Assembly (NCBI GenBank): GCA_964350785.1
Contig: CAYGMD010000003.1
Coordinates: 1-61,624 of the forward strand
Direction: 5' to 3'
Length of the DNA: 61,624 bases
DNA from: an uncultured Acidobacterium sp.
Lineage (GTDB): Bacteria; Acidobacteriota; Vicinamibacteria; Vicinamibacterales; UBA2999
The notes under the pieces were generated by a model, which was given only the letters and a program-made list of their open reading frames with translations, searched no databases and was not told the DNA's origin. Below are positions 6,020-34,831 of the stretch, in pieces (positions within the stretch are counted from its first letter, which is position 1; each line of letters starts with the position of its first letter). A program made the position numbers and the translations under genes.

Positions 6020-6599
6020 TCAACGGCAGATGAGGTGCGGGGGCGTCGCGCGGATGCGGGGGCATCCCGTCTTCGAGGTCCACGCCGAGCCCGTCGGCCA
6101 CACGGTTGATGTAGTTGAAATAGCTGACGATCTGCACCGCATCCGAGACGGCGCGGTCATCAAAACCCTCAGCTCGAAGCGCCACGACATCGTCCTGGAT
6201 CATGGCTGCCGGCTCGGCGGTCAGCTTGACGGCGAAGGCGAGCAGCGCGCGGTCGGCGGGCCCCAGCGGTGCCTTCGTCCAGTCCGTTTTCACCTGCTCC
6301 ACCAGCTCCGGGTCGTCGACCTCGGCACGGAGGTCGTCGGCATGCGCCTCGGTTCAATAGTGGCAGCCGTTGGTCCGCGAGACGACCACGGCCAGCATCT
6401 CTCGCTGCGCCCTGGTGAGGGGCGACCGCCCGCGCATCAGGGCGGCGTAGAGCGCCGTCGAGTGCTTCATCGCCGGCGGGTTGAGGCTCTTGATTCGAAT
6501 GATCTGCCACACCTTGCCCGCGCGGGCCAGCGCGGCGTCGTACTCGGCTCGCAACAACCCGGTGGCTTCGGCCACCGGCTTCAGATCGATCCAGGCCAT
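6015..6599 (-). CDS. AhpD/CMD-family selenoprotein (CxxU), Sec at UGA 6354-6356
   Basis: ORFs 6354..6599 and 6015..6302 are in frame: NGCHY-TGA-TEAHADD. The UGA sits at the second Cys of the AhpD CxxC; downstream hairpin present. Confidence 0.88.
6317..6336 (-). other. Putative bacterial SECIS hairpin
   Basis: CGACCUC-CGUGCC-GAGGUCG, 7-bp stem; loop starts 24 nt after the UGA. Confidence 0.7.
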
Positions 6600-6788
6600 C
6601 TCGCTTCTCCTTCCTTAGCATGACACCGATGCTGAATCCTCATCGGCTCTTGGTGGGTGTCCTGCTCGCCGCGGAGCCATGTGGCGTGTGGGCCTGGTCG
6701 CGCGGCCCGCTGCGGTGACGATCACCGCCGAGGCTGGGCCGTTTCTTGACCAGGCCGTTGTGTCGCGCTGATATCGCGACGGATACGC

Positions 6789-6804
6789 TGTGAGCGGGCT
6801 CACA
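6789..6804. promoter_or_regulatory. Perfect CRP-type box TGTGA-gcgggc-TCACA
   Basis: In the divergent intergenic region between the AhpD selenoprotein and the TVP38 gene. Confidence 0.7.
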
Positions 6805-6979
6805 GATCCACGCCCCCGGCACACGGTCTCCGCCGCTGGCCAACAAGCGTGTGCCATGCTGGCGCCATGCCTGACGTAACACTGGCGTGCGATACACCGA
6901 TCGCTTCGGCACGAGCTGCCGCGTCCCGCATGGAACCAGCAGCGGAGTTCACCGCCGATGGTCAGGTGACCGGTCGGTG

Positions 6980-7681
6980 ATGGTGACCGGAACACTCAAG
7001 GCCGGGATGATCGCGGCTGGCGTTGCCGCGGCGGCCTTCCTCGTCTGGCAGCTGCCCGTCGCGCCCTGGATTGTTGCCTTGGCCGACCGGCTGCGGGAAA
7101 TGGGCTGGCTTGGCATCGCGCTATTCATCGCGATCTATGTCGTGGCCGAGGTGGCCCTTCTGCCGGGCTCGCTCTTCACGCTGGCGGCCGGATTCGCTTA
7201 CGGCCCCGTAGGTGGCCTGCTCGTGGCGTCGCCGGCCAGCGTCCTGGCCGCCACGGTGGCCTTCCTGCTGGGTCGCACGGTGCTGCGGGACTGGATCCGC
7301 GCACGGATTCATCGCTACCCGAAGGCCCAGGCGCTCGATACAGCGATCGGCACCAACAGCTTCAAGTTGATCCTGCTGCTCCGCCTGTCGCCCGTCATTC
7401 CGTTCAACATCCTGAACTACGCCCTCGGCCTGTCGGACGCCAAGGTCGGGCGCTATGTCGTGGCCTCGTTTGTCGGCATGCTGCCAGGCACCTGGTTGTA
7501 CGTGTATCTCGGATCGCTCGCCACGACGGCCGCCCAGCTCACTGAAGCCGGCCAGACCGGCTCACCGCAGACACTGATCCTGACGGGCGTGGGTCTGGTG
7601 TCCACCGTGCTCGTCGTCGTGCTCGTGACTCGCGCGGCGCAGCGGGCGCTGGACGAACAACTGGCCGCGACCAGACGCTGA
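6980..7681 (+). CDS. TVP38/TMEM64 (VTT/SNARE-assoc, DedA superfamily) membrane protein
   Basis: LPGSLFTLAAGFAYG, LLRLSPVIPFNILNY motifs; start could also be 7007. Confidence 0.9.
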   Translation: MVTGTLKAGMIAAGVAAAAFLVWQLPVAPWIVALADRLREMGWLGIALFIAIYVVAEVALLPGSLFTLAAGFAYGPVGGLLVASPASVLAATVAFLLGRTVLRDWIRARIHRYPKAQALDTAIGTNSFKLILLLRLSPVIPFNILNYALGLSDAKVGRYVVASFVGMLPGTWLYVYLGSLATTAAQLTEAGQTGSPQTLILTGVGLVSTVLVVVLVTRAAQRALDEQLAATRR

Positions 7682-7686
7682 ATGCC

Positions 7687-9210
7687 TTACCGCGTCCATC
7701 GAAAATACCGCTCGAACCACCGCTTCACCGACGGCGTCAGCAATCCTCTCCGGTAGGCGTCGCCGGCCTTCTTCAGCGCCTCGGCCTGCGTCGGGTACGG
7801 ATGGATCGTCGCCGCCAGATCACCCAGCGAGCCACCGTGCGTCACGACATACGAGGCCTCCCCAATCAGGTCTCCCGCATGCGCCGCGACGATGGTGCAA
7901 CCGAGAAGCCGTCCGCCCACGTGATGCAAGCGCACAAACCCCTCCGCCTCTTCGTCGAGCACCGCGCGATCGACCTCGGCCAGTTCAATCGTGATCGTCT
8001 TGACGTCATGGCCCTTCTGGCGGGCCTCGGCTTCATACATCCCGACGTGCGCGATTTCCGGATCGGTATACGTACACCACGGCACGACCAGCGCGCTCGC
8101 CCGCTTGCGCCCGTAGAACAGCGCATTCTGAATGACGATGCGCGCCATGGCGTCGGCGGCGTGAGTGAACTTGTACTTGGAACACACATCGCCGGCGGCG
8201 TAGATGCGCCGGTTCGAGGTCTGCATGCGGTCGTTCACCACGACGCCGGCCTTGGTGACGGCCACGCCGGCCGCGTCGAGGCCGAGTCCTTCGATGTTCG
8301 GCGCGCGGCCCGCCGCCACGAGTATCTGGTCACCACCCGCCGCTCCCGACCCGGCGCCGTCGCGGCGCTCGTACCGGATCCGCACACCGGCCGCATCGCT
8401 CGTGGCCTCGACCAGCTGGACACCGAGCTCCAGCCGCACGCCGTCCTCGAGGAGTTGGCGCTGCACGATCGCCGCCGCATCGGCGTCCTCGTTGGGAAGC
8501 ACGTGCGGTGGGCGACCGAGCAGCGTGACCTCGCTGCCGAATCGCGCGAAGGCCTGCGCCAGCTCGCAGCCAATGGGTCCCGCGCCGACCACGATGAGCC
8601 GCGGCGGCAGTTCGGTGAGCCAGAACACGGTCTCGTTAGTGAGGAACGGAATGCCGTCGAGGCCGGGTACCGGCGGGGCGATCGGGCGGCCGCCGGTGGC
8701 GACGACCGCACGGTTGAACTTCAACGTGCGGCCGGCCACTTCGAGGGTGCGCGCGCTCGTGAACGCGCCGCTGCCCAGGAAGACGTCCACCCCGGCGCGC
8801 TGCAAGCGCTGCACCGAGTCGTTGACGCTGATACCGGCGCGGCGCTCACGCATTCGGCGCATGATGGCGGGGAAGTCGGCCTCGACCGGCCCAATGCGGA
8901 CGCCGATCCTGGAAGCCCGGCGCGCCTCGGCGATGGCGCGCGCCGACCGGATGAGCGCTTTCGACGGCACACAACCGACGTTGAGGCAGTCACCGCCAAG
9001 CAAGCCCCGCTCGACAAGCGCCACGCACGCGCCGAGGCCGGCGGCGCCGACGGCACTGACCAGGCCAGCAGTTCCGCCGCCGACGACGACGAGGTCGTAG
9101 ACATCTCGCGGCTCAGGATTCTCCCAATCCGATGGATGAACCGCCTGGAGCAGCGCCTGGTTGGCCGCGTCGAGCGGCCGCACCAGTGGATGGGGCGTGG
9201 TCGTCGTCAT
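7687..9210 (-). CDS. Mercuric-reductase-like pyridine nucleotide-disulfide oxidoreductase
   Basis: GGGTAG, GGDCLNVGCVPSK, GAGPIGCE, IHPYPT; no HMA domain and no C-terminal Cys-Cys. Confidence 0.88.
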   Translation of the reverse strand: MTTTTPHPLVRPLDAANQALLQAVHPSDWENPEPRDVYDLVVVGGGTAGLVSAVGAAGLGACVALVERGLLGGDCLNVGCVPSKALIRSARAIAEARRASRIGVRIGPVEADFPAIMRRMRERRAGISVNDSVQRLQRAGVDVFLGSGAFTSARTLEVAGRTLKFNRAVVATGGRPIAPPVPGLDGIPFLTNETVFWLTELPPRLIVVGAGPIGCELAQAFARFGSEVTLLGRPPHVLPNEDADAAAIVQRQLLEDGVRLELGVQLVEATSDAAGVRIRYERRDGAGSGAAGGDQILVAAGRAPNIEGLGLDAAGVAVTKAGVVVNDRMQTSNRRIYAAGDVCSKYKFTHAADAMARIVIQNALFYGRKRASALVVPWCTYTDPEIAHVGMYEAEARQKGHDVKTITIELAEVDRAVLDEEAEGFVRLHHVGGRLLGCTIVAAHAGDLIGEASYVVTHGGSLGDLAATIHPYPTQAEALKKAGDAYRRGLLTPSVKRWFERYFRWTR

Positions 9211-9284
9211 GCGTTCCTCAGACCATGTACGCGGTGGTGTCTTGAGGCTTCGCGGTGAAGTGCAGCCCCTGTGCCCGGACGACG

Positions 9285-9457
9285 GGCACCTTCTTCGGAT
9301 CACACCCGCGCAGCGCGCACGTGCCGCCGAACGGCTGCTTGCCGATCATCGCGACGGTCCACCCCGCGCCGCGGCACCGCGACGCGACGCTGCCGGCCGC
9401 GGATCCGGAACCAATCACGATCAGGTCGACGGCGCGAGGCGTCATCACTTGAGGCAT
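9285..9457 (-). pseudogene. N-terminal remnant of a glutathione-reductase-like flavoprotein
   Basis: VDLIVIGSGSAAG...FGGTCALRGCDPKK then loss of homology. Confidence 0.7.
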
Positions 9458-9520
9458 GGAAAGAGCATAGCCCGCAGCGGCCCTCGCGCCGCGACGCGCG
9501 TGCGGGTAACCGTCGCGAAC

Positions 9521-9536
9521 AGTGAGGCGCGTCACA
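9521..9536. promoter_or_regulatory. CRP-type box AGTGA-ggcgcg-TCACA (class II position)
   Basis: Centre 9528.5 is 41.5 nt before ATG 9570; -10-like TATCGT at 9558-9563. Confidence 0.7.
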
Positions 9537-9569
9537 GCAGGGATGGAGTGGCGCCCCTATCGTTGGGCG

Positions 9570-10547
9570 ATGGCCCACGTCGTTGAGTTCTTCTACAGCG
9601 AACACTGTATCGGCTGTCCGGAGGCGCGGCAGGTCGTCAGACAACTGGCGGCGGCGAGGCCGGATATCGCGATCGCCGAGTTCGATATCGCGACGCACAT
9701 CGATGAAGCCGGCCGGCATGGCTTGATTGCCACGCCGGCAGTGGTCATCGATGGCGGCCCGGCGCTCTATGGGATTCCTCGGATTTCGGATCTGGCCGCC
9801 CGGTTGGACGGACCGTCGGCTCGGGCTCGCGCGAGTGGTGAACGGCCGCTTATACTGTCGGGGATGGCGGCCCACACCAAGCTTTGGTACCTGCAGCATT
9901 TCCGTTTGCTGGAGGCCCTCACCGACGTCCAGAAGCGCGCCGTCGAGAAGATGACGCGCATGCTGGAAGTCAAGCGCGGCCAGCGCATTTACCTCCCGGG
10001 CGATCCGAGTGACCAGATCTTCCTGCTCAAGACCGGGGTGGTGAAGATTTCGACAGGCGGCGCCGAACAAGATACCATCCTGGCGTTGCTCTATCCGGGC
10101 GACATCTTTGGTGAGCTCGCCATGCTCGACGAGTCGCCGCGCGATCACATCGCCGAGGTCGTGGAAGACACCGTCCTCTGCGCGCTCAATCGAGACATGC
10201 TGCTGCAGATGATCCAGCAGTCGCCTGCGCTCGGCTACCAGATCACCAAGCTCATGGGACTGCGGTTGCGCCGCCTGCGAACGCGGGTCGAGGAACTGCT
10301 GTTCAAGAGCGCGCATGCCCGCATCGCCCACACCCTGCTTGACCTCGCCGCCGACTACGGCGTCAAAGACGATGATGGGGTGCTGATTCCGATTCGCTTG
10401 AACCAGGGCGACCTGGGCAACCTGGTCGGCCTGGCGCGTGAGACGGTGAACATCGTTCTGCAGGACCTGAAGCAGCGAGGCCTCGTCGAGACCAGCCGCC
10501 AGAACATCCGCCTCAAGAGTCCGGAGCTGCTGCGCGCGGTCGTGTAG
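9570..10547 (+). CDS. Thioredoxin-like (CxxC) domain fused in frame to a CRP/FNR regulator
   Basis: FYSEHCIGC...ATPAVVIDG, then from Met 9864 a cNMP-binding domain (FGELAMLDESPR) and HTH (LVGLARETVN). No stop between the two parts. Confidence 0.8.
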   Translation: MAHVVEFFYSEHCIGCPEARQVVRQLAAARPDIAIAEFDIATHIDEAGRHGLIATPAVVIDGGPALYGIPRISDLAARLDGPSARARASGERPLILSGMAAHTKLWYLQHFRLLEALTDVQKRAVEKMTRMLEVKRGQRIYLPGDPSDQIFLLKTGVVKISTGGAEQDTILALLYPGDIFGELAMLDESPRDHIAEVVEDTVLCALNRDMLLQMIQQSPALGYQITKLMGLRLRRLRTRVEELLFKSAHARIAHTLLDLAADYGVKDDDGVLIPIRLNQGDLGNLVGLARETVNIVLQDLKQRGLVETSRQNIRLKSPELLRAVV

Positions 10548-10554
10548 CGCCATC

Positions 10555-10620
10555 GTGAAACGCATCCTCGCGTTCGACGTCAACGACACGCCGCTCGACG
10601 TCCGGGCCCTCGAGACCTCG
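10555..10620 (+). pseudogene. N-terminal remnant of haloacid dehalogenase type II
   Basis: GTG-KRILAFDVNDTPLDVRALE resembles the HAD-II motif I region; only about 20 codons. Confidence 0.45.
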
Positions 10621-10654
10621 GTGGAAAGACGGCAGGGCGCCAACAGGCGATGAT

Positions 10655-11236
10655 GTGAAGGACCTCACATTCTGTTGCCGCCACGCCGACCTGCTGGCGA
10701 TTCAACAAGCCGCCAAGGGTGCCGCGACGCTGACCGGTAATCTGCTGGGCGTCGCGCGCCGGTACAGCGCCGGTGCAACCTACGCCAGCGTGACCGACGT
10801 GCTCAGCGCACCGTTGGACAACCTCGCGCGCGAGTTCGCCAGGCACCACATCACCGTCGAAACCGACTTCAAACCGGCGCCGGCGCCGAACGTCGACCTC
10901 AACTTGCTCTCCCAGGTGTGCCTGAATCTCTATCTCAACGCGCGGGACGCCATGATTCCGAAGGGCGGCGGCACGCTTCGCGTGTCGCTGCGTGGCACGG
11001 CTGACGGCATCGAGTTCACGGTGACCGACACCGGCACGGGCATTCCGGAAGCGTTTCGCTCGCGTATCTTCCAGCCCCTGCAATCCACCAAGGGCGATCG
11101 CGGCACCGGGCTCGGGCTCTCGGTCTCGAAGTCGGTCATTGAATCGATGGGGGGACGCATTCGATACGAGTCGGTCGAGGGCCTGGGCACATCATTCTTT
11201 GTCACGCTGCCGACGGACCCGCCGGGGCGGGCGTAA
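10655..11236 (+). pseudogene. Histidine kinase C-terminal (HATPase_c) fragment
   Basis: N box LNLYLNARDAM, G1 VTDTGTGI, G2 GTGLGLS; no H-box or sensor domain. Confidence 0.7.
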
Positions 11237-11306
11237 GAGCGATGCCACCGGCCAGGCGCGACAGCGTGATCCGATAGGCCTGGAGGCGTTCCACCCACGG
11301 CCCGCA

Positions 11307-11350
11307 GACGAGCCGCCGAGCGGGTCGATGCACAGGATGTACTTGGCCCC
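11307..11350 (-). pseudogene. Tiny remnant of class I fructose-1,6-bisphosphatase
   Basis: KYILCIDPLGGSS resembles the FBPase DPLDGSS motif; lies just after zwf. Confidence 0.4.
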
Positions 11351-11414
11351 TGGCCCGCACGCGATCTGCCGCGGCGCGCCGGGTGCCCGTCCGTCATCGG
11401 CTCCTCCCGGCCGG

Positions 11415-12980
11415 TCACGCGCTCGGGTCCCGCCAGGCACGACTGTCGCGCTCCAGCAGCGCGTCGGCCTGCGTCGGCCCCCAACTGCCCGCCTGATACT
11501 CGCGGACGGGGGCGCCGCCCGCCTGCCACGACGCCAGCATCGGCGCCACCAGTTCCCATCCAGCCTCGACGATATCGGCGCGGTGGAACAGCGTGGCGTC
11601 ACCAATCATGCAGTCGTACAACAGCGTTTCGTAACCGGTGCTCGGCGACTCGCCGAAGTGGTCGGCGTAGCAGAAGTCCATCTTCACGGCGCCCAGTTGC
11701 ACGCGCGGGCCGGGCACCTTGGCCTCGAACTGCAACGAGATGCCCTCGCGTGGCTGGATGCGCAGCACCAGCCAGTTCGGCTGCACGCATTCGGCCGGGG
11801 TGTCGCGGAACAGCGCCAGGGGCGGCTGCTTGAACTGGATCGCGATTTCCGTCACTCGCGACGGCAACCGCTTCCCCGTCCGCAGGTAGAACGGCACCTC
11901 GGCCCAGCGCCAGTTATCAATAAGCACCTTCAACCCGACGTAGGTTTCGGTGTCGGACAGGAGCGCCACCTTGGGCTCCGATCGATACGCCGGGACGGCA
12001 TGGCCGCCGAGCGTTCCCGCGGTGTACTGGCCACGCACCACGTCGCGTGTCACCGCATCCTCGGTGAACGGGCGGACCGCCTGAAGCACTTTGAGCCGCT
12101 CGTTGCGGACCGGCTCGGCCAGGAACGACGCCGGCGGCTCCATCGTGGTGACCGCGAGCAGTTGGAACAAGTGGTTCTGCAGCATGTCGCGCACGGCACC
12201 CGCCGTGTCGTAATAACCGCCGCGCTGCTCGACACCAACCGCTTCGGCGACGCAGATCTGCACGTGATCGACATAGCGCCGGTTCCAGATCGGCTCGAAA
12301 ATGCCGTTACCGAACCGGAGCGCCATGATGTTCTGGACGGTCTCTTTTCCCAGGTAGTGGTCGATGCGATAGATCTGGTGCTCGTGCACGACGCCGAGCA
12401 TTTGGCGGTTGAGGGCGCGCGCCGAGTCGAGGTCCCGCCCGAAGGGCTTTTCGACGATGACACGACGCCAGGCACCGGCGGCTTCATGGGCGAGCCCGGC
12501 GGCACCGAGTTGGTCGACGATCGGCCCGAACAGGTTCGGCGGTGTGGCAAGGTAGAAGACGGCGTTGAGCGAGCCACCCTCACTGCCCGCCAGTCGCCGA
12601 GCGATCTCCCGGTACGTGGCCTGGTCGTCGAAGCCGCCCGACACGTACGCGGCGCGCGCCAGTAACCAGTCGACGTCCCCGGCATCGACCGGCGGCGCCG
12701 CGAACTCAACTAAGTCACGGACAAGCTTTTTGTGATACTCGGGATCGGTCTGCGCGTCGCGTCCGACGCCGATCAGGGTGAACCGGTCGCCCAGCAGGCC
12801 GCTGCCGCGCAGGTTATACAAGGCCGGCACCAGCTTGCGCATGGCCAGATCGCCACTGGCGCCGAAGATGACGACCGCGCAGGGATCGGCCGGCGGCGCC
12901 GGGGCCTGCGTCCGTTCGGCGCACCCGGCCGTGACGCCCGGCTCCCCCGTGGATTTGAGCTTCATCGTCGTTGGCGCCAT
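11415..12980 (-). CDS. zwf: Glucose-6-phosphate 1-dehydrogenase
   Basis: GASGDLA, RIDHYLGKE, RWAEVPFYLRTGK. Confidence 0.95.
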   Translation of the reverse strand: MAPTTMKLKSTGEPGVTAGCAERTQAPAPPADPCAVVIFGASGDLAMRKLVPALYNLRGSGLLGDRFTLIGVGRDAQTDPEYHKKLVRDLVEFAAPPVDAGDVDWLLARAAYVSGGFDDQATYREIARRLAGSEGGSLNAVFYLATPPNLFGPIVDQLGAAGLAHEAAGAWRRVIVEKPFGRDLDSARALNRQMLGVVHEHQIYRIDHYLGKETVQNIMALRFGNGIFEPIWNRRYVDHVQICVAEAVGVEQRGGYYDTAGAVRDMLQNHLFQLLAVTTMEPPASFLAEPVRNERLKVLQAVRPFTEDAVTRDVVRGQYTAGTLGGHAVPAYRSEPKVALLSDTETYVGLKVLIDNWRWAEVPFYLRTGKRLPSRVTEIAIQFKQPPLALFRDTPAECVQPNWLVLRIQPREGISLQFEAKVPGPRVQLGAVKMDFCYADHFGESPSTGYETLLYDCMIGDATLFHRADIVEAGWELVAPMLASWQAGGAPVREYQAGSWGPTQADALLERDSRAWRDPSA

Positions 12981-12985
12981 GCCAC

Positions 12986-13966
12986 CTAACCTCCAGACGG
13001 ACGCTCGACGTGACCGCCGAACTTGAAGCGCATGGCCGACAGTACTTTCTCGCCGAAGGTATGCTCCTGGCGCGAGCGGAATCTGGCGAACAGCGCCGAC
13101 GCCAAGACCTCGACCGGCACCGCCTCGGCGATTGCCGCTTCGATCGTCCAACGTCCCTCGCCGGAATCCTGCACAAAGCCCGTGTACTGCGATAGCTTCG
13201 GGTCTTCGGCGAGCGCCATGGCCGTGAGGTCAAGCAGCCAGGATCCGACCACGCTCCCATGTCGCCAGACCTCGGCGATCTCCGCCAAATCGAACTCGTA
13301 GCGCTGCCCGGCTGGCAACTGGTCGCCGCCGGCGTTACGAAGAATGTCGAAGCCCTCGGCGTAAGCCTGCATCAGTCCGTATTCGATGCCGTTGTGCACC
13401 ATCTTGACGAAGTGCCCGGCGCCGGCGGGTCCGCAGTACAGGTAGCCGCGCTCCGCAGTGCCGCCGGCCGGCCGGCCCGGCGTCGGTGACACGCCGTCGT
13501 GTCCGGGTGCGAGTGTGGCGAAGATCGGATCGAGCCGACCCACCACGTCTCGTGGGCCACCCACCATCAGGCTGTAGCCACGGTCGATCCCCCACAGCCC
13601 GCCGCTCGTGCCGACGTCGAGGTAGTGAACGCCGCTGGACTTCAGCGCCTCCGCGCGGCGAACGTCGTCTTTGAAATTTGAATTGCCACCGTCGATCACG
13701 ACATCACCGGGGCTGAGCAACGCCGAGACGGCCGACACCATCTGCTCGGTCGCCTCGCCGGCCGGCACCATGAGCCACACCGCACGTGGCGGCGTCAGGG
13801 CCTGCACCAGCGCTTCGAGCGAGGCCGACGGGGTGGCGCCTTCGCCGGCCAGTTCCTGCATGCGCTCGGCGCTCAAGTCGAACACCGCCGCCGCGTGCCC
13901 GCCGCGCATCAACCGGCGCACCATGTTGGCGCCCATCCGTCCGAGACCAATCATTCCAATTTGCAT
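12986..13966 (-). CDS. gnd: 6-phosphogluconate dehydrogenase (decarboxylating, short type)
   Basis: [40 protein letters not shown]. Confidence 0.95.
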
Positions 13967-14000
13967 CATTTCCTCATGGCGGAGACCACGCACCGCGTGT

Positions 14001-14184
14001 TTACCACAGCGCCTCGTTCACCAGCGCGGCGAGCCCTTCGAGCCCGGCGGCCACGTCGGTGCCGAGGTGGACGCCGAGCAGCGGCCGGCCACGAGCCGCC
14101 AGCACGAATCGATCGCGGTCGGTCGATCGACAGCGTGCGGATCGTGTTGATGGAGGGCTGTTCCAGTGCGATTGTCTCGCTCAC
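14001..14184 (-). pseudogene. Chimeric remnant: transketolase N-terminus joined to transaldolase/PGI C-terminus
   Basis: MSETIALEQPSINTIRTLSID (tkt-like start) and, in another frame, RFVLAARGRPLLGVHLGTDVAAGLEGLAALV (tal-pgi-like end); directly upstream of gnd. Confidence 0.55.
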
Positions 14185-16017: not shown

Positions 16018-17100
16018 CTACTGGCCGGGCGCGCGTTCGCGGTCCAGCGCCTTCAGGCTTACCGTCCACGTCAGCGGCACCGTCTGCGGGTTGAAACACA
16101 CCTTGTCGTCGCACGCCTGGTAGTTCAGGATCCCCTCGATGGTGACGCTGGTGGCGCCCTTGAGCGCGGCCTGGCCGGCGGCCGACGAGTCGATCATCAC
16201 GTCCTGCACAATACGGAACGGCTTCTGGTACACCTGCACGTGTTCATCCAGCGGCTTGAAGTGGTAGTCCTCTGATTTGGGGTACTGAGCGGCCCGGACG
16301 ACGAGGCCCGGCTTGGCTTTGACCGTCAAGACGATCGGCTTGTAACCGGTAACGCCGGGCGCATAGACATGCACTCGCGGCGCGGGAGTGATGTCCAGCA
16401 CGATGGAGAAGTGGGTGCCGGGCGCCGCCGCCTGGTCGGTCGTGTACGAGGTGATCTCGACATTCGGTGATGACACCTTGGTCGCCGGCACATTCACCTT
16501 GCTGCCCATCCGAACGAGCACGCTCGACATCGTATTGCGCTCCTGGTAGCCGTCTTCGAAGAAGCGGGACGTCACCACGCCCCGGCGGTCAACGATGAAC
16601 ATGCCGGGAAACGGATATCCGAACAGGTTGTTCGACGGATCCACCGCCGTATTGAGGAGCCCGTACCGCTTGATGACGGCCGAGCCGGCATCTGACAACA
16701 GGGGAAACGTGATCTGCCGGCGTGCCGCGAACTCGGCGAGTACGGGAACCGGGTCGTAGGTGATCACGGCCAACTCGTAGCCGTTCTGCCTCACGTCGGC
16801 CAGCCGTCCCTGCATTTCGACGAGTTGCGTCTTGCAATAGGGACACCAGGACGCGGACCTCGAGAAGGTCAGCATGAGGCCCTTGGGGCCCATCAAGGAT
16901 TCCAGGGTGCGGGCACGCCCCGTCTGGTCCCGGAGGGAGAACGCCGGCAGCTTGTCACCGACCTGCGGGCCGAGCTTTCGCACGTCCGGCGCGGACGCAG
17001 CGGCGGCCGATTGCTCGGCGACCAGCGGTGACGAGACGGCGCCGGAGGCGATCACGCCACCGATCAAACACACACAGAAAGCGCACAGGCGAGCGAGCAT
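16018..17100 (-). CDS. Exported redoxin (AhpC/TSA-like, CxxC) + DsbD N-terminal-like domain; Cys paralog
   Basis: Signal peptide, SWCPYCKTQL, C-terminal YQACDDKVCF. Confidence 0.85.
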   Translation of the reverse strand: MLARLCAFCVCLIGGVIASGAVSSPLVAEQSAAAASAPDVRKLGPQVGDKLPAFSLRDQTGRARTLESLMGPKGLMLTFSRSASWCPYCKTQLVEMQGRLADVRQNGYELAVITYDPVPVLAEFAARRQITFPLLSDAGSAVIKRYGLLNTAVDPSNNLFGYPFPGMFIVDRRGVVTSRFFEDGYQERNTMSSVLVRMGSKVNVPATKVSSPNVEITSYTTDQAAAPGTHFSIVLDITPAPRVHVYAPGVTGYKPIVLTVKAKPGLVVRAAQYPKSEDYHFKPLDEHVQVYQKPFRIVQDVMIDSSAAGQAALKGATSVTIEGILNYQACDDKVCFNPQTVPLTWTVSLKALDRERAPGQ

Positions 17101-19193: not shown

Positions 19194-20216
19194 ATGCGCG
19201 CGATGTTGATGTGGGTACTCTTCGCCGGCACGATGTCGGCTCAACTATCGTGGACCGAGCAGGCCACGATCGATGGCGATCCGGTGATGCGTGGCCTGCC
19301 CAAAGACGCCATTCCCGCGATTGACAAGCCCGTCTTCGTGCCCGTCGCCCAGGCGAAGTACATGCAGGACGAGGAACCGGTAATCGGCGTCGCGTTCGGC
19401 GCCGTCGCCCGCGCCTACCCCACCTGGCTGCTCAACGGGCACGAGATCGTCAACGACACCATCGCGGGGCGCGCGATTACGGTGACCTGGTGACCGCTCT
19501 GTTACACGGGCATCGTGTATGCCCGCACGGTCGCTAACCGCGAACTGACCTTCGGCGTGTCCGGCATGCTCTGGCGCGACAACCTGGTCATGTACGACCG
19601 CCAGACCGACTCCTGGTGGGCACAGGCCACCGGCACCGCCATTGCCGGGCCCCTCAAGGGACAAGTGCTGACCATTCTGGCCTCCGATATGATGACCTGG
19701 AAGCAGTGGCGCAGTCTGCACCCGGGCACGGTGGTCTTGTCCAAGGAGACCGCGGCCGGTGCCGACGGCACGAGCGACCGCTATGACGGCTATCACGCGC
19801 GCGGCGGAATCGGCGTCACAGGCCGCACGACGTCCGCCGGTGCTCTCGATCCGAAGGCGCGGGTGCTCGGTTTCCGCATCGAGGGCCGGCCCTACGCCGC
19901 AGCGCTCGATGTACTGAAGGCCAATCCGGTACTGCCGGTGGCGAGCGTGCCCGGTGGCCTGATCGTCGTCGCCACGCCCGACCGGTCAGGCGCCAAGGTG
20001 TTCGCCGCGGGCGGAAGGGCCTTCGAGGCGGCGGGCACAGAGGGCGACCGGACGACGATCCGAGACCGTGAGACCGGATCGCGGTGGGACGGTTATCAAG
20101 GCCTGGCTGTGTCCGGGCCGCTCAAGGGGCAGCAGCTCGCCGCCACGCCCGCGTTCGTGTCGTACTGGTTCTCGTGGCGGTCGTTCTTTCCGGCCACCGA
20201 GATCATACGGCGGTAG
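19194..20216 (+). CDS. DUF3179-family selenoprotein (UxxC), Sec at UGA 19491-19493
   Basis: ITVTW-TGA-PLCYTGIVY joins ORFs 19194..19493 and 19515..20216; PKDAIPAID, SGMLWRDNLVMYDRQTDSWW. Confidence 0.88.
19507..19525 (+). other. Putative SECIS hairpin
   Basis: CGGGCAU-CGUGU-AUGCCCG; loop 20 nt after the UGA. Confidence 0.75.
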
Positions 20217-20228
20217 CGACAAGGTGCC

Positions 20229-20771
20229 TCAAGAGCCGAAGCGCTCCTCGAGTTCGACGCCCAGTCCGTCCGCCAGGCGGTTGACGAAGGCGAAGTAACC
20301 GACGATGGTACAAACGTCGTGGATGGCCCGATCATCGAAGCCGGCGGCGCGCAGCAGGTCGACATCGGCGACCGTCATCGCGGCCGGGGTGCGCGTCAGC
20401 TTCATCGCATACACCAACATTGCCCGGTCCGGTGCGCTCGTCGCGGCGGACTCCGGGTGTTCCACCAGCGCACGCAGCATGTCGTCCTGGGCCGACGGCG
20501 CAATGCCCTCGCGGGTGAGCAACAGACGGAGACCCGCTCCGTGATGCTGAGTTCAATAGTGACAACCGTTGGCTGCCGACACGGCGGTCGCCATCATCTC
20601 CCGCTGAATCCGCGTGAGCGGCCCCGACCGCCGCATCAACTCGACGTAGAGATCGAAGTGCAGGCGCATCACCCGGCTGTGCACGCCGTGGATGCGGAGA
20701 ATGTTGTCGGTGTCATCGACGCGATCCTCGACGGGAATCTCGCTGTCTGGCAGATAGTGAATATGGGCCAT
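20229..20771 (-). CDS. Second AhpD/CMD-family selenoprotein (CxxU), Sec at UGA 20553-20555
   Basis: NGCHY-TGA-TQHHGAGL joins ORFs 20553..20771 and 20229..20522; FVNRLADGLGV C-terminus like the first copy. Confidence 0.88.
20520..20549 (-). other. Putative SECIS hairpin
   Basis: CAGCA/UGUUG lower stem, ACGGAG-CGGGU-CUCCGU upper stem; loop 16 nt after the UGA. Confidence 0.7.
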
Positions 20772-26205: not shown

Positions 26206-26217
26206 GCACGGGACCAA

Positions 26218-27486: not shown

Positions 27487-28376
27487 GCCTCGATCGGTGG
27501 GTTGAACGGAGATTCATCGACCAGGCGCCAATGGGTCGCGCCGGGCAATGGCGAGACGACCCACGCGCGGGGCCTCAAGGTCCAGGCGCGCCCGGTGCCC
27601 GCCATTTCCACGCTGACCTCGCCGCTCAGGTGCAGCTGCCGTCGCGCCTCGAAATCGACGAGAGCCAATCCCGCGCGCGGTTCGACCACCATGTTCCCGA
27701 GGCTGCAGAACATGGAATTCCCCGGGTAGTCGGGCACGACGACGGTATCGCCGTCCAATCGCATGTACCCGCGTCGCCCGCCGCGATGCGAACAGTCGAG
27801 CCTCCCGTCCGGCCCGATGCTCGCGACGAATGCCGTATCGGTGCGAGTCAGCCACGATTGCAGCTGAGCCGGGGCGCCCAGTCCCCTCGACGTCGTCGCC
27901 GACGGCACGAGTGTGGCCGCATCGACGCGTTCGCGCCGCTGGATGTACTTGGGGCAATTCGGAAACGCTTGCTCAACAGCGACCCGCAGGTCGCGGTCCG
28001 TCGATCGCTCGACGACCCCATTGACCCGTAATCGACGCCTCGTGGCAAGGTCGATGACCAGCATGCCGACCGCGCCCGTCGCGCGCACATCGTCGTGGAA
28101 CGAGCCGGGCGGTGTGAGACTGCCCGTCGTACGAATCGTCACGGCGGTCCCGTCCTGGTCGCAAGACGCAAACCCAGGCCCACCCACCGCCAGCGACGCC
28201 CAGGGATTGCCCGACGGGTCGCGCCAACCGATCGCGACAGAGGATTGTTGACCGACGAAGGACCGGGCAGGCGCAGGGATGACACTCGAGAACACACGGC
28301 CATTGAGGACCGCCTGACTGCGTTCGCCAGCCAGTTCCTGAACGGCGATCTCACCTCGGTGATACAACTCGGCCAC
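27483..28376 (-). CDS. Pyridoxamine 5'-phosphate oxidase-like (double FMN split barrel) protein
   Basis: YHRGEIAVQ, RRRLRVNG, NCPKYIQRR, DCSHRGG, PDYPGN. Confidence 0.85.
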   Translation of the reverse strand: MAELYHRGEIAVQELAGERSQAVLNGRVFSSVIPAPARSFVGQQSSVAIGWRDPSGNPWASLAVGGPGFASCDQDGTAVTIRTTGSLTPPGSFHDDVRATGAVGMLVIDLATRRRLRVNGVVERSTDRDLRVAVEQAFPNCPKYIQRRERVDAATLVPSATTSRGLGAPAQLQSWLTRTDTAFVASIGPDGRLDCSHRGGRRGYMRLDGDTVVVPDYPGNSMFCSLGNMVVEPRAGLALVDFEARRQLHLSGEVSVEMAGTGRAWTLRPRAWVVSPLPGATHWRLVDESPFNPPIEA

Positions 28377-28390
28377 GATGACTCTCCTAG

Positions 28391-28424
28391 AAAAAAATGG
28401 GGCGGGACCCAGTCGGCCCCGCCC
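28391..28424 (-). terminator. Intrinsic terminator after dsrE-like gene
   Basis: GGGCGGGGCC/GGUCCCGCCC stem followed by a U7 run. Confidence 0.7.
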
Positions 28425-28445
28425 GGTCACAACCTCGCGGGGTGG

Positions 28446-28823
28446 TTAGAAGTTCAGGACGCGGTAGCCGGCGTCCAGGTACTTGGACAGATCGATGATT
28501 CCGGAGGTGCCCGGAATCGCCTTTTCGTGAATCAGGTTTGCACCGGCATTCCTGGCGTCCTGCGTCGCACCGAACACGTCGGCGCAACCACCGCACACGC
28601 CGACCACGCTGTCCTTGACCGCGTTGTAGAGCGCGTGCGCCGGGTGTTCGGGCTTCACCAGCTCGCTGGCCCAACGCACGCCGGTGCCCTGGAAGATCAG
28701 CGCCACGTCCTGCTTCTTCTCGAGCAGTTCGTAGGCCACGAACATGCCGTTGAACAGCCGGCCGAGCGCTTCTTCACTGCCGGACTTCGGATCGGAATAG
28801 ATGACAATTGCGGTCTTCGACAT
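28446..28823 (-). CDS. DsrE-family protein
   Basis: LIFQGTGV and VCGGCADVFG. Confidence 0.75.
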   Translation of the reverse strand: MSKTAIVIYSDPKSGSEEALGRLFNGMFVAYELLEKKQDVALIFQGTGVRWASELVKPEHPAHALYNAVKDSVVGVCGGCADVFGATQDARNAGANLIHEKAIPGTSGIIDLSKYLDAGYRVLNF

Positions 28824-28900
28824 CAGTCACTCCTGAAAATTGTGGTCTGCAAATGGCCGATTAAGTCGTGTACGAGCGCGGCGTGGCCCTGCGCCGCGCG

Positions 28901-29374
28901 TCAGAGGTTGAGATCCGACAACGAGGGATGCCCCTCGGGCCGCGGGCCGGCCGGCCACCGGAACAGCCGGTCGGCCTCGAGAATCGGCCGCTCGTTGATG
29001 CTGGCCAGGCGGCGCCGCATCAGCCCGGCGGTGTCGAACTCCCAGTTCTCGTTGCCGTACGACCGGAACCAGTTCCCGCTGTCGTCGCGCCACTCGTAGG
29101 CGAAGCGAACGGCGATCCGATCGGCGCCGAACGTCCACAGCTCCTTGACAAGCCGGTAGTCCAGTTCGCGCGCCCACTTCCGCCGCAGAAACGCGACGAT
29201 GGCGGGGCGACCGGCAAGGAACTCGACCCGGTTGCGCCAGATCGAGTCCGGCGTGTAGGCGAGCGACACGCGCTCCGGATCGCGGCTGTTCCAGCCGTCC
29301 TCCGCCATCCGCACCTTCTGCGTGGCGGTCTCAGGGGAAAACGGCGGTGCAGGTGGACGAATCGGTAAAGACAT
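28901..29374 (-). CDS. DUF1348 / NTF2-like protein
   Basis: [36 protein letters not shown]. Confidence 0.9.
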
Positions 29375-29404
29375 GGGCACAGTCCTCTCGTTGACCGGGC
29401 GTTC

Positions 29405-30208
29405 CTACTTGAGCGACGACAGGACCTTCACGGCGCTCGCCGTGCTCCAGATGTCGCTGGCAATGAGCCGGAAGTTGACGTAGGCGGCCTCGTAGCCGTC
29501 GAAGCCCGGAAGTTTCGCGGCGGCCGTCGCGTCGGTGACGACGACGACCTCGAAGCCCTGCTCGAGCAGCTCGCGCATGTGCGACTCGGTGCAGAGATTG
29601 GCCGACATGCCGGCCAGCACGACCTGGCCGATTCCGGCCTTTCGAAGCTGCAGCACCAGATCGTTGGTCTCGGGTCCGAACACCTTGTGCGGGCTGGAGA
29701 CGACGGTCGTGCCGTCGTTCAGGTACGGCTTGTAGCGATCCAACCAGTCGGCGCCTGATCCCTCGAACGCTTCCTGCGTGAGCGCGCCCTTGCGGTCGAA
29801 CATGCCGATGTTGTGCATCAGCACCTCGAGCGCGCCCGCGAACTTCCAGCGATGGTCGTGCGCGAAGTAATAGTGCGGGCTCACGAACACCGGCACATCC
29901 GCGGTCTTCGCGGCCTTGAGCAGCCGCTCGATGTTCTCGACCGTGCCGTTCTCCTTCACGCTCTCGCCGACGACGCCCCAGGCGACGCCCTTCGGGCTGA
30001 GGAAATCGTTCTGCGGATCGGTGACGAGCAAGCCGACGCGGCCCTTGATGGGGGTCATGCCGGGACGCGGCACCGGCGCGTCGGCTCGCGGACCACTGAA
30101 GTGCGGCAGGGTGGGTGTCGCGCGCTGAGCGACGAGGTGGGGCGCCACGGCCAGGGCCGAAGCGCCGACAATCAGGGCGATAACTGACAAGCGGATGATA
30201 CGGGTCAC
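29405..30208 (-). CDS. Isochorismatase-family cysteine hydrolase with signal peptide
   Basis: TDPQNDF, SPHK, GMSANLC catalytic triad. Confidence 0.88.
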   Translation of the reverse strand: MTRIIRLSVIALIVGASALAVAPHLVAQRATPTLPHFSGPRADAPVPRPGMTPIKGRVGLLVTDPQNDFLSPKGVAWGVVGESVKENGTVENIERLLKAAKTADVPVFVSPHYYFAHDHRWKFAGALEVLMHNIGMFDRKGALTQEAFEGSGADWLDRYKPYLNDGTTVVSSPHKVFGPETNDLVLQLRKAGIGQVVLAGMSANLCTESHMRELLEQGFEVVVVTDATAAAKLPGFDGYEAAYVNFRLIASDIWSTASAVKVLSSLK

Positions 30209-30284
30209 GGTGGTCTCCTTCGACCGATGAGCAAACACGGTTCCTTAGGACGAATCGTCCTGACTCGTCCCCGCCGACCGATAT

Positions 30285-30301
30285 ATCAAGTTGCCTGCCA
30301 A
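30285..30301 (-). promoter_or_regulatory. sigma54-type promoter TTGGCAGGCAACTTGAT
   Basis: GG-N10-GA variant of -24/-12; faces the hydrolase operon, next to a bEBP gene. Confidence 0.55.
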
Positions 30302-30340
30302 CTTGTGACCTGACGTGTAAGTTACTGTTTCAATTGATGT

Positions 30341-30356
30341 TGTGACAGATTTCAGA
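30341..30356. promoter_or_regulatory. CRP-type box TGTGA-cagatt-TCAGA
   Basis: One mismatch; divergent AT-rich intergenic region. Confidence 0.5.
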
Positions 30357-30462
30357 CATTATCCGGTAACGACCAAATATCGTCGCCTACCATTTTTCGT
30401 TGCACATAATAGTTGTTTTTCGTAGTCTACCAGCGGTGAACACGCTTCAGTTACCTGGTGTC

Positions 30463-32016
<1,554 letters not shown>

Positions 32017-32403
32017 TTGACGGCGGACAGTTCGGCACACGCAGCCGCGCAGCTTCTCGAGAGGACCGCCGCGCGGTCCGGCCACCAGCGGTGCCCACCG
32101 CTACCTCAAGGCGACGATTCGGTCCGCACATCCTGACCACCCGCGGTTGCGGCGCTCGTCGGCATCCGCGTCTTTGCGCGGGAGCTGAACAGAAGCACGT
32201 TGCCTTCGAAGGGGGTCGATGCGGCTTTCGCAGGCGTGAGCTGGTTCGGCGGTCTTCTCGGTGGCGTGGGAACAGGTCTGTGGATGCTCCGGTGCCGCCG
32301 CATTCCGATCGTGCGAGCGGCCGCCCAAGCGACCTGCCGTGGGCCGTCGCTTTTCCCGGCGCCGGACTGCGGCAGCCCTGACGACTGCCAGCCCTTCGTG
32401 CCG

Positions 32404-33198
32404 TCAGTGATGCGCCGGCCGTTGCGCTGATCGCTTCCATAGGGCGATCCCTCCGAGCAGGCCGGCAGCGTTGTCGACCACGCGCACGCGGCGGCCCAGG
32501 TGGAAATCGATGCGCGCGGCGTTGCCCCCACCCAGATAGAGCCGGTCGAAGTTGAAAACGGTCTCGAGAATGCCAATGACGCGACGCACGCGCCGGCGCC
32601 ACTTGCGAGTGCCCAGCCGCTTACGCGCCGCATCGCCGAGGTACTGATCGTAGGTCTTGCGGCCGCGGACCGGGTGCTGTGACAGTTCCAGATGCGGCAA
32701 CAGCGCGCCGTCCTGAAACTGCGCGCTGCCCACGCCGGTTCCCAGCGTGATGACCAGCTCGAAACCTTGACCCGCGATCACCGCAAGCCCCTGGACCTCG
32801 GCGTCGTTGACCACCCGAACCGGCCGCTTGAGAATCTCCTCCAGCGCGCGTGCGAGATCGAATCCGCGCCAGGTCCGACTGGCGAAGTTCGGTGCGGTGC
32901 GTACGACACCATCTCGAACCACGCCTGGAAAGCCTGCCGAGATCCGATCATACTCGGCCAGGGGCGCGACCAAGTCGCGGATTGCGCGTACCACGGTCGA
33001 TGGCGGCCGGCCGGCGGGTGTTGGCGTACGCACGCGGTCGCCTATGGGCTTGCCGCGAGCATCGAGGACCACGGCCTTCAGTCCCGTTCCGCCGATGTCG
33101 ATCGTCAGCGTCAGAGGGCCGGCGCGTCTACGACGCTGTTGCCTCGCACGGGCGGCTGCAGGGGGCTTGGTTGAAATGACAGGCTCCTTCGGCGTCAT
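32404..33198 (-). CDS. ROK-family kinase (polyphosphate glucokinase-like)
   Basis: DIGGTGLK, VNDAEVQG, LGTGVGS, LGGGNA. Confidence 0.85.
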   Translation of the reverse strand: MTPKEPVISTKPPAAARARQQRRRRAGPLTLTIDIGGTGLKAVVLDARGKPIGDRVRTPTPAGRPPSTVVRAIRDLVAPLAEYDRISAGFPGVVRDGVVRTAPNFASRTWRGFDLARALEEILKRPVRVVNDAEVQGLAVIAGQGFELVITLGTGVGSAQFQDGALLPHLELSQHPVRGRKTYDQYLGDAARKRLGTRKWRRRVRRVIGILETVFNFDRLYLGGGNAARIDFHLGRRVRVVDNAAGLLGGIALWKRSAQRPAHH

Positions 33199-33244
33199 AT
33201 GGCTTAGGTTAGTCGCCGTCGTGAGTTGTCTGTTACCGCCGACC

Positions 33245-33260
33245 GGTGATCCACATCACA
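33245..33260. promoter_or_regulatory. CRP-type box GGTGA-tccaca-TCACA
   Basis: Upstream of the ROK gene, which has TAACCT 7 nt before its ATG. Confidence 0.55.
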
Positions 33261-33344
33261 CATCCCGCACATCGCTCGTCTCGTTCCACCAAACCGGGCA
33301 CACACGTTGGACATCACGCGGGCACGTTCAACTCTGGCGGAATC

Positions 33345-33520
33345 TGATGCACCCGCATATTGGTCGGTCGATGTTAATGGTTAAACCCGGCCTGCGGATG
33401 GTGAGGGTCAAGCAGGCATTTGGAGTCTTGATTCTCGGCACAGCGCTCTACTACGGCTATGTGGCGTATGAGTTGTTCGCCAATCGCTGGGTGGACGCCT
33501 CCTCGGCGGCGACGCGCGAA
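33345..33520 (+). pseudogene. DsbD/CcdA transmembrane-domain remnant
   Basis: KPGLRMVRVKQAFGVLILGTALYYGY resembles the DsbD PxPGxWMxxxKxxxG segment. Confidence 0.55.
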
Positions 33521-33631
33521 CCGGGCGAGTTGTCCAGCTCAATCGCCGTACCATCACATCTCTATGATGCAAAGGGGCTACAGAACAGAGCACCCCTGGC
33601 CATTTGGTGGCGGGACCCCTTGTGCGAAGGC

Positions 33632-33647
33632 TGTGAGCGGAGTCACA
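33632..33647. promoter_or_regulatory. Perfect CRP-type box TGTGA-gcggag-TCACA (class II position)
   Basis: Centre 33639.5; TATGAT at 33670-33675; GTG 33680 / ATG 33683. Confidence 0.75.
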
Positions 33648-33682
33648 CCTTGGGCGCGATCAGTGCGCGTATGATGCGGGTG

Positions 33683-34831
33683 ATGAAAGGTGCGGCGAGT
33701 TTCTGGTCAATGCTGGCGCTGCTGTGCGCCCCGCTGTTCTCGCAGGTGCCGGCGCCGCGGGCGCCCGTGGACGTGGCACGGCTCGGACCGCAGGTCGGCG
33801 AACACGTTCCTGGATTCAGCCTGACGGATCAGTCGGGCAAGACGTGGACTCTGTCCTCCGTCATGGGCCCGAAGGGCGCCATGATCGTCTTCTACCGATC
33901 GGTGGATTGGTGACCGTATTGCAAAACGCAGCTCGTGGAGCTGCAAGGACGGGTGGACGAACTCACGGCGCAAGGCCTCGGCCTAACCGCCATCAGCTAT
34001 GACTCGCCGGAGCTGCTGGCGGATTTCAGCCGCCGGCACCGGATCACGTTTCCGCTGCTCTCGGACACCGGCTCGGCGACGATCACGACCTACGGCATTC
34101 TCAACACCGTCGCCGACGAAGCGCTCGAGACCCGACCCGGCAACGCCACCCTGCGGGAGGATGTGAAGAAGTACGTGGCGACCAACGGATCGCGCAGCGT
34201 CGCCGAGCTGACGAAGGGAACGCCGTTCCCCGGTACGTTTGTCGTCGATCGCGAGGGTCGCGTCACGGCGCGATTCTTCGAGGAGTACTATCGCGAGCGG
34301 AACACGGCATCGAGCATCCTGCTCAGGCTCGGAAACGGTGCGCCGCCGGTCGCCGCCACGCGGATCGCGGCTGCACATCTCGACATCACGGCGTATGCGA
34401 GCGACTCGACGGTCTCGCCCGGCACACGCTTCGCGCTTGCCGTGAGCGTCGTGCCCCGGCCGCGCATCCACGTCTACGCCCCGGGCGCCGATGCCAACGG
34501 GTACCGTGTCGTGTCCTTGAGCGTCGCGCCGCAGCCGTTCGTGCGGACGCTGCCGATTCGTTATCCCCCTTCGGAGATCTACGATTTCAAGCCGCTCGAC
34601 GAGCGCGTGCCGGTGTACCGGAAGGCGTTCACCTTGCTACGGGAAGTGGTCGTCGAGGTCACCTCCGAAGCGGAGCGGGCCCTGCGCGATCGGAAGACCC
34701 TGACGATGACCGGCGTCCTCGAGTATCAGGCCTGCGACGACAAGGTGTGTTTCACTCCGGCAACGGTGCCGCTGACGTGGACGGTCGCGCTCACACCAAA
34801 CATTACCGAGCGCCCGAATCGTCCGCAGTGA
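33683..34831 (+). CDS. Exported redoxin + DsbD-N-like selenoprotein (UxxC), Sec at UGA 33911-33913
   Basis: FYRSVDW-TGA-PYCKTQL aligns with FSRSASW-C-PYCKTQL of 16018..17100. Confidence 0.9.
33928..33944 (+). other. Putative SECIS hairpin
   Basis: GCAGCUC-GUG-GAGCUGC; loop about 20 nt after the UGA. Confidence 0.75.

Follow-up and report, generated by a model that had tools for sequence, protein, structure and literature searches.

The stretch analysed here, the first 61,624 nucleotides of contig CAYGMD010000003.1 of an uncultured Acidobacterium sp. (the window), carries four genes with an in-frame UGA codon, each followed after a spacer of 10-17 nt by a short hairpin of the kind known in bacteria as the selenocysteine insertion sequence (SECIS). 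Two of the genes encode AhpD-like proteins, one a DUF3179 protein, and one a fusion of a Prx-like (AhpC/TSA) domain with a DsbD_N domain. The genes and their SECIS elements are listed in Table 1 together with the other probable selenocysteine (Sec) genes of the same genome.

Table 1. Probable selenoprotein genes and SECIS elements of the window, and further probable Sec genes of the genome (locations with a contig prefix). Stems and loops are given 5' to 3' on the coding strand.
Feature	Location	Strand	Details
AhpD-like selenoprotein gene 1 (peroxidase-related, TIGR01926)	6015..6599	-	194 codons; motif C-H-Y-U; Sec codon 6356-6354; terminal TGA 6017-6015
SECIS 1 (AhpD-like 1), UGA and hairpin	6317..6356	-	17-nt spacer; stem CGACCUC/GAGGUCG (6336-6330 / 6323-6317), 7 bp; loop CGUGCC; UGA-to-loop 24 nt; encodes D-D-L-R-A-E-V
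DUF3179 selenoprotein gene	19194..20216	+	340 codons; motif W-U-P-L-C; Sec codon 19491-19493
SECIS 2 (DUF3179), UGA and hairpin	19491..19525	+	13-nt spacer; stem CGGGCAU/AUGCCCG (19507-19513 / 19519-19525), 7 bp; loop CGUGU; UGA-to-loop 20 nt; encodes T-G-I-V-Y-A-R
AhpD-like selenoprotein gene 2 (TIGR01926)	20229..20771	-	180 codons; motif C-H-Y-U; Sec codon 20555-20553; one in-frame TGA
SECIS 3 (AhpD-like 2), UGA and hairpin	20526..20555	-	10-nt spacer; stem ACGGAG/CUCCGU (20542-20537 / 20531-20526), 6 bp; loop CGGGU; UGA-to-loop 16 nt; encodes H-G-A-G-L-R
Prx-like (AhpC/TSA) + DsbD_N fusion selenoprotein gene	33671..34831	+	386 codons; motif W-U-P-Y-C; Sec codon 33911-33913
SECIS 4 (Prx-like/DsbD_N), UGA and hairpin	33911..33944	+	14-nt spacer; stem GCAGCU/AGCUGC (33928-33933 / 33939-33944), 6 bp; loop CGUGG; UGA-to-loop 20 nt; encodes T-Q-L-V-E-L-Q
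Prx-like/DsbD_N Sec paralogue	C78:9153	+	hairpin identical to SECIS 4: GCAGCU-CGUGG-AGCUGC
Prx-like/DsbD_N Sec paralogue	C192:5316	-	hairpin identical to SECIS 4: GCAGCU-CGUGG-AGCUGC
BCP-type peroxiredoxin	C46:8252	+	motif FTGGUTAEC; hairpin GUCGCUC-CGUGA-GAGCGGC
FdhA	C215:5108	+	hairpin CGUCGCC-GGUCU-GGCGGCG
PDO-type thioredoxin	C60:23758	-	TIGR02187 above cut-off; hairpin CGAGGGC-GGUC-GUCCUCG
CooC/MinD-like ATPase	C4:38279-39055, UGA 38612	+	motif GAGUMCG; hairpin GCCACG-GUC-CGUGGC; loop readable as GUC/GGUCC
SelD	C80:6115	-	hairpin UCGCUCA-GGUCC-UGAGCGG, 32 nt downstream
AhpD-like 3	C53:24124	+	hairpin GGCGGC-AGUUC-GCCGCC
DUF411 protein	C1:82041-82523, UGA 82182	+	motif UGCC; 9-nt loop UGCAACAUC
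HMA-domain protein	C65:4013	-	weak hairpin

The read-through translations of the four window genes, with U entered as C, were searched against Pfam and NCBIfam profiles. AhpD-like 1 matched PF02627 (3.8e-11) and TIGR01926 (147.7 bits, cut-off 81.8), both matches crossing the UGA, and AhpD-like 2 matched TIGR01926 with 114.9 bits (cut-off 81.8). The DUF3179 protein matched PF11376 end to end (2.9e-81; profile positions 1-292 of 292). In the Prx-like/DsbD_N protein, PF00578 was matched across the UGA (3.3e-28), and the C-terminal part gave 22.2 bits for PF11412, which is under the 25-bit Pfam cut-off. The genes thus belong, as the first-pass annotation of this DNA had stated, to three unrelated families, namely CMD/TIGR01926, PF11376, and PF00578 with PF11412. 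In all four, the UGA occupies the position of a redox Cys (CHYU, WUPLC, CHYU and WUPYC) and the family match is continuous across it; Cys-form homologues exist for the DUF3179, Prx-like and AhpD-like genes. The four genes very probably read UGA as selenocysteine.

The elements were found by a scan for TGA followed by a stem with a CG[GT]G loop, by read-through translation and by a coordinate check. Each of the four UGAs is followed by a perfect stem of 6-7 bp, and the loops CGUGCC, CGUGU, CGGGU and CGUGG start 16-24 nt downstream, at positions that the first-pass annotation had given correctly to the base. Its further statement, that loop position 2 is G in all four elements in agreement with the general bacterial SECIS rule, was confirmed. 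SECIS 4 can alternatively be folded as a 7-bp stem with the triloop GUG. The folding energy of the 50 nt starting at the UGA is between -13.8 and -17.3 kcal/mol for the four elements. Given the length of these pieces (50 nt) and the G+C content of 66%, the frequency of the pattern at other TGAs and covariation were used in place of folding z-scores.

For the chance control, a hairpin was defined as a perfect Watson-Crick stem of at least 6 bp with a loop of 3-8 nt and a gap of 13-30 nt. Among all TGA trinucleotides in the genome (n = 122,250), 6.1% are followed by any such hairpin, 2.4% by one with G at loop position 2, and 0.11% by one with a loop starting CG[GU]G. The corresponding values for the terminal TGAs of confident long open reading frames (ORFs; n = 770) are 8.3%, 2.6% and 0.26%; ordinary UGA stops therefore do not carry equally good hairpins at a similar frequency, a possibility that the first-pass annotation had named as one that would speak against its reading. 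Under the a priori rule of G at loop position 2, the chance of finding four of four is ~3e-7. When G-U pairs were allowed, a hairpin was present at 12 of 13 Sec UGAs of the genome versus 31% of terminal TGAs, and a CGKG loop (CG(U/G)G) at 7 of 13 versus 1.0%. The four window hairpins are far above chance.

The assembly (5.08 Mb in 375 contigs, 66% G+C) encodes SelA (525.6 bits), SelB (324.7 bits against TIGR00475), SelD (354.9 bits), whose own gene has an in-frame TGA, and a tRNA-Sec with the anticodon UCA. SelB is a canonical protein of 643 residues with EF-Tu-like domains and SelB winged-helix domains. Compared at the level of sequence only with the winged-helix domains 3-4 of Moorella thermoacetica SelB in complex with SECIS RNA (PDB 1WSU, 2UWM), its C-terminal 106 residues align to the 1WSU chain with E = 5e-11, and the last-helix motif SRK(F/Y)..PLLEYLD....TRR.GD.R is common to both proteins.

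A genome-wide search with a UGA-stem-CGKG probe, which the first-pass annotation had recommended for the detection of further selenoproteins, gave 136 matches. Ranking by the coding potential that flanks the TGA on either side put the four window genes and two Prx-like paralogues in the first six places, and the remainder looks like noise. The probe recovers about half of the genome's selenoprotein genes and alone gives ~130 false matches in 5 Mb; hence, it is a poor stand-alone detector. Eight further probable Sec genes were found by a hairpin-independent coding-potential scan, family checks and targeted searches. An initial coding-potential filter proved too stringent, losing three of the four known read-through genes, and was relaxed; the number of 14 Sec genes is accordingly a lower bound. 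It is probable that this 5-Mb Acidobacteriota genome has at least 14 selenoprotein genes, the four in the window and at least 10 more. Many TGAs with a Met a few codons on were taken as adjacent genes in one frame rather than as selenoprotein genes, and a sigma-70-like ORF with an in-frame TGA (C361:1031, - strand; …ASACALUHEGAWDH…) was left out, as its family match (Sigma70_r4) lies downstream of the TGA only.

The loops of the 14 Sec genes are CGKG in seven, GGUC-type in four, AGUUC in one and other in two. In FdhA the loop bases, counted from the U of UGA, are G22 G23 U24 C25. The loop of the DUF411 gene, UGCAACAUC, is the least canonical among the Sec genes of this genome. CG(U/G)G is not shared by all or nearly all host selenoprotein genes.

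Two of the additional genes have family contexts of their own. In the CooC/MinD-like ATPase, the match to PF01656 crosses the UGA, and the Sec motif G-A-G-U-M-C-G is located where CooC-like proteins have C-x-C. Among 121 sampled genomes, its relatives include one more Sec form (G024, 49% identity) and five Cys forms. The protein had no match among the selenoprotein-specific NCBIfam models, and its family goes unmentioned in the text of the 2026 review PMC13188914; this may be an undescribed selenoprotein family. In the DUF411 protein, UGCC replaces the CGCC metal-binding motif. DUF411 homologues with an in-frame TGA occur in nine further genomes of the 121 sampled, beside TGA-free forms; of the loci examined, five have the TGA at the site of CGCC and five are confirmed Cys forms. 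DUF411 is likewise not named in the text of PMC13188914.

Of 301 genomes sampled from the phylum, 114 have AhpD-like homologues, and most of the matches listed have an in-frame TGA. Loci whose Sec codon escaped simple regular expressions were left out of the orthologue counts. The best named matches to AhpD-like 1 within the phylum are from Vicinamibacterales metagenome-assembled genomes, at 58-61% identity. Two classes of hairpin were distinguished. Class I, to which AhpD-like 1 belongs, is CGACCUC-CG[U/G]GCC-GAGGUCG, located 24 nt downstream of the UGA and encoding D-D-L-R-A-E-V. Class II is ACGGAGA-GGA-UCUCCGU, located 16-17 nt downstream and encoding H-G-E-D-L-R; it was seen in many AhpD-like genes, one (L174) having ACGGAGC-GGG-GCUCCGU, and AhpD-like 2 is a variant of it. 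The class I and class II SECIS positions are mutually exclusive, and the downstream peptide differs accordingly (loci L010-L039 and L100-L179); hence, the RNA signal appears to shape the protein sequence.

In a scan of AhpD-like genes across phyla, with one genome per species, 80 loci were obtained and the Sec codon could be placed in 77. The class I element is present in 65 of these 77, from nine named phyla (Planctomycetota, Chloroflexota, Actinomycetota, Acidobacteriota, Latescibacterota, Gemmatimonadota, Myxococcota, Marinimicrobia and Verrucomicrobiota). Its loop starts with CGUG or CGGG, and in five cases with CGGU, so that a tetraloop like that of E. coli (C-GGUC-G) results. Thus, CG(U/G)G is neither restricted to nor strongly enriched in the lineage of the host. 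The Arg codon in the class I loop is CGG in 39 and CGU in 26 of the 65 sequences, and CGC, CGA and AGR are absent, whereas at other Arg positions of the same genes CGC accounts for 43% and CGG plus CGU for only 40%. The probability of a codon ending in G or U in 65 of 65 against 40% expected is ~1e-26, relatedness being ignored. Loop position 3 of class I, a synonymous site, is confined to G or U.

Across 84 aligned AhpD-like elements, 97% of cells are paired and both sides have changed in five of seven pairs; none of 500 shuffles reached the observed values, and controls with slid positions gave 21-46% paired. Compensation is seen even at an amino-acid cost, GAC being replaced by GAU together with GUC (Val) by AUC (Ile). 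RNAalifold independently gave the same 7-bp stem and 6-nt loop for class I, with a consensus hairpin of -10.6 kcal/mol. The AhpD-like stem is selected as RNA.

DUF3179 homologues, Sec and Cys forms together, were found in 77 of 201 sampled genomes, and about half of the matches listed have an in-frame TGA. A hairpin at the same place is present in 14 of 14 Sec forms, with a G[G/U] loop (CGUGU, GGUCU, GGUUC or GGUAC). The Cys forms provide a natural control; a comparable hairpin was found in one of six, and the downstream peptide G-[IVL]-V-[YHW] is also absent from them.

Prx-like/DsbD_N homologues were found in 38 of the 201 sampled genomes, most of the matches listed having an in-frame TGA. 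The stem GCAGCU/AGCUGC hardly varies among 25 Sec orthologues, in which the pentaloops are GGUCG (9), CGUGG (8), CGUCG (3), and GGUCC, CGUGC, AGUUG, GGGUC and CGGCG (one each). Positions 2 and 3 of the loop are GU in 23 and GG in two. The third, synonymous bases of a Leu and a Val codon form positions 1 and 4, which covary, with C..G in 9, G..C in 10, C..C in 4 and G..G in none (Fisher p = 0.0016, uncorrected for phylogeny). DUF411 orthologues from the same order as the host have the loops GGUCU, GGUCA or GGUCUUG. Across these families, what does not vary is N-G-[G/U]-N, its flanking bases often being complementary, rather than CG(U/G)G.

Selenoprotein forms of the AhpD-like, DUF3179 and Prx-like/DsbD_N proteins are common across the Acidobacteriota samples. 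The window also contains, at 16018-17100 (- strand), a Cys paralogue of its Prx-like/DsbD_N selenoprotein, with 54% identity over the Prx domain and no in-frame stop. The DUF3179 gene and AhpD-like gene 2 (19194-20771) are convergent neighbours with 12 nt between their stop codons. In relatives, DUF3179, Prx-like and AhpD-like genes occur within a few kb of one another (G134:C1, 385-391 kb; G098:C69, 15.8-22.7 kb), which suggests that this redox gene neighbourhood is conserved. A search of the whole window against Rfam at gathering thresholds gave two tRNAs and no SECIS family, a result that is uninformative for such short hairpins; the tRNA genes, at 44245-44330 (- strand) and 59226-59299 (+ strand), are unrelated to the SECIS elements.

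In all likelihood, the four window elements are ordinary bacterial SECIS elements in the coding sequence of probable selenoprotein genes of known families (two AhpD-like, DUF3179 and Prx-like), and CG(U/G)G is one spelling of the general loop N1-G-[G/U]-N. By analogy with E. coli and Moorella, SelB with GTP and Sec-tRNA(Sec) would bind the apical part of the hairpin via its C-terminal winged-helix domain and would recognise the exposed dinucleotide G-[U/G] at positions 2-3 of the loop. This would keep the complex at the ribosome while the UGA, which precedes the loop by 16-24 nt, moves into the A site, and selenocysteine would be inserted in place of termination. SelB binding, for which the conserved C-terminus of the host SelB also speaks, and selenocysteine insertion at the window UGAs are presumed on this model. 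The same host SelB would also serve the GGUC-type loops; CG(U/G)G is not needed here, nor is it peculiar to the lineage. In a genome of 66% G+C, the flanks C..G and G..C are to be expected.

Several observations weigh against this assignment. The minimum free energy z-scores of the four elements against shuffles are between -0.3 and -1.2, so that the hairpins cannot be distinguished by energy in DNA of 66% G+C. Half of the host Sec genes (7/14) begin the loop with CGKG, and these represent five independent elements. In the Prx-like copies from the same order (11 of 11), the first loop base is C, as compared with mostly G in other classes, which may indicate a mild local preference for C-first loops; this indication comes from one gene lineage (Prx-like), and DUF411 of the same order uses GGUC. 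The bulged U of the E. coli fdhF element is absent from all four perfect window stems. Finally, positions 2-3 of the AhpD-like 2 loop are GG, which the consensus allows but the E. coli mutational data do not cover.

The distribution of loops over gene families could alternatively mean that CGKG and GGUC are two functional classes served by one SelB with differing affinity or read-through, thiol-peroxidase-type genes being tuned apart from fdhA and selD. In the host, CGKG indeed occurs in the AhpD-like, Prx-like, BCP and DUF3179 genes, and GGUC in fdhA, selD and the PDO-thioredoxin and CooC-like genes. If so, the recoding signal would be tunable through the two loop flanks, which covary at synonymous positions. 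However, orthologues switch freely between the two (CGUGG/GGUCG in Prx-like, CGUGU/GGUCU in DUF3179 and CGGGCC/C-GGUC-G in AhpD-like genes), and the published consensus treats CGKG and GGUC as one model (PMC13188914). Such a division of function is improbable.

The first-pass annotation had suggested that unrelated genes have converged on CG(U/G)G as a lineage-specific SelB recognition motif, which would mean that SelB of this lineage has shifted its specificity to it. The presence of CGKG in all four window genes and in seven of the 14 Sec genes of the genome speaks for this reading; CGKG starts just ~1.8% of the loops of background hairpins (136/7,443), and all same-order Prx-like copies have C-first loops. 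Nevertheless, the proposal does not stand. The other half of the host Sec genes lack the loop, a finding that the annotation itself had named as contrary to its proposal: these are FdhA (GGUCU), SelD (GGUCC), the PDO-thioredoxin (GGUC), the CooC-like ATPase (GUC/GGUCC), AhpD-like 3 (AGUUC), DUF411 and the HMA-domain protein. Beyond the host, an identical AhpD-like stem with a CG[U/G]G loop is present in nine phyla, Acidobacteriota included. Closer to the host, GGUCU or GGUCA is the loop of same-order DUF411 orthologues, and within the phylum DUF3179 and Prx-like orthologues carry GGUCU, GGUUC or GGUCG at the same position, i.e. orthologues switch between CGUG and GGUC. In AhpD-like 1, C1 and G4 of the loop are the first bases of Arg and Ala codons, and the sequence of SelB winged-helix domain 4 is conserved with Moorella. 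A lineage-specific recognition motif is thus very unlikely.

That the hairpins are by-products of conserved peptides (DLRAEV, QLVELQ and GIVYA) with no role at the RNA level, read-through depending on something else, is hardly credible: the stems do coincide with these peptide motifs, hairpin and residues are identical in the three Prx-like paralogues and the z-scores are unremarkable, but the AhpD-like loop Arg codon ends in G or U without exception, the Leu and Val third bases of the Prx-like loop covary, stem changes are compensated in spite of a V to I replacement (with GAC to GAU), and in DUF3179 homologues of the Cys form the hairpin and the peptide motif after it are both missing.

The window elements are therefore already explained by the known bacterial SECIS consensus and do not reveal a recognition code that is new or specific to the lineage. 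With respect to SECIS biology, the result confirms what is known and provides a natural illustration of the published consensus, in that position 3 is G or U across nine phyla and the flanking bases covary. For annotation, standard gene callers would truncate or split the four window genes and at least 10 more, and these should be annotated as selenoprotein genes.

The families concerned have been described previously. A predicted AhpD-like SECIS with the conserved loop G was already reported in the Sargasso Sea study (PMC1088965), AhpD-like (TIGR01926, CxxU) and DUF3179 (UxxC/T) proteins are listed as selenoprotein families in PMC13188914, and the same review mentions that Prx-like and AhpD-like selenoprotein genes can lie together. 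The AhpD-like, Prx-like and DUF3179 selenoproteins from marine and other metagenomes belong to the same families and have the same CxxU/UxxC motifs as those of the window (PMC1088965, PMC2398784, PMC13188914). Acidobacteriota has 0 occurrences in the main text of the 2026 prokaryotic selenoproteome review PMC13188914. The window genes are new instances of these known selenoproteins, in an Acidobacteriota genome.

The minimal E. coli fdhF SECIS is a 17-nt upper stem-loop, in which a bulged U17 is needed by E. coli SelB. Its conserved loop bases are G23 and U24 (PMC8659212). The window elements resemble it in that the hairpin is directly downstream of the UGA and loop positions 2-3 are GU in three of the four; the host fdhA has G22 G23 U24 C25 in the same numbering. 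They differ in that the loops are CGUG or CGGG with flanks C..G instead of G..C, and the conserved G is at position 21-29 as compared with 23. The missing bulged U and the swapped flanking loop bases rule out assignment of the window hairpins to the E. coli fdhF type.

In contrast, the elements conform to the general description. Bacterial SECIS elements generally have a stem of 6-8 bp, with the conserved G of the loop lying ~20 nt beyond the UGA (PMC4605307). The model of Zhang and Gladyshev (bSECISearch), in the summary given by PMC13188914, specifies an apical loop of 3-9 nt on a stem of 4-16 bp, a G at loop position 1 or 2, in many cases with G or U next to it, the loop pattern N1(0-1)G[G|U]NN2(0-1) with N1 and N2 paired, a UGA-to-loop distance of 16-37 nt, and a free energy of -7.5 kcal/mol or lower. 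The window elements are within all of these limits, with loops of 6, 5, 5 and 5 nt on perfect stems of 7, 7, 6 and 6 bp, distances of 24, 20, 16 and 20 nt, G at position 2 followed by U, U, G and U, respectively, and energies (50 nt) well inside the limit. The in-frame UGA lies at a Cys site in a continuous frame, and the host has SelA, SelB, SelD and tRNA-Sec. There is no difference of substance between the window elements and this model, CG(U/G)G being the sub-case in which N1 is C and a G follows.

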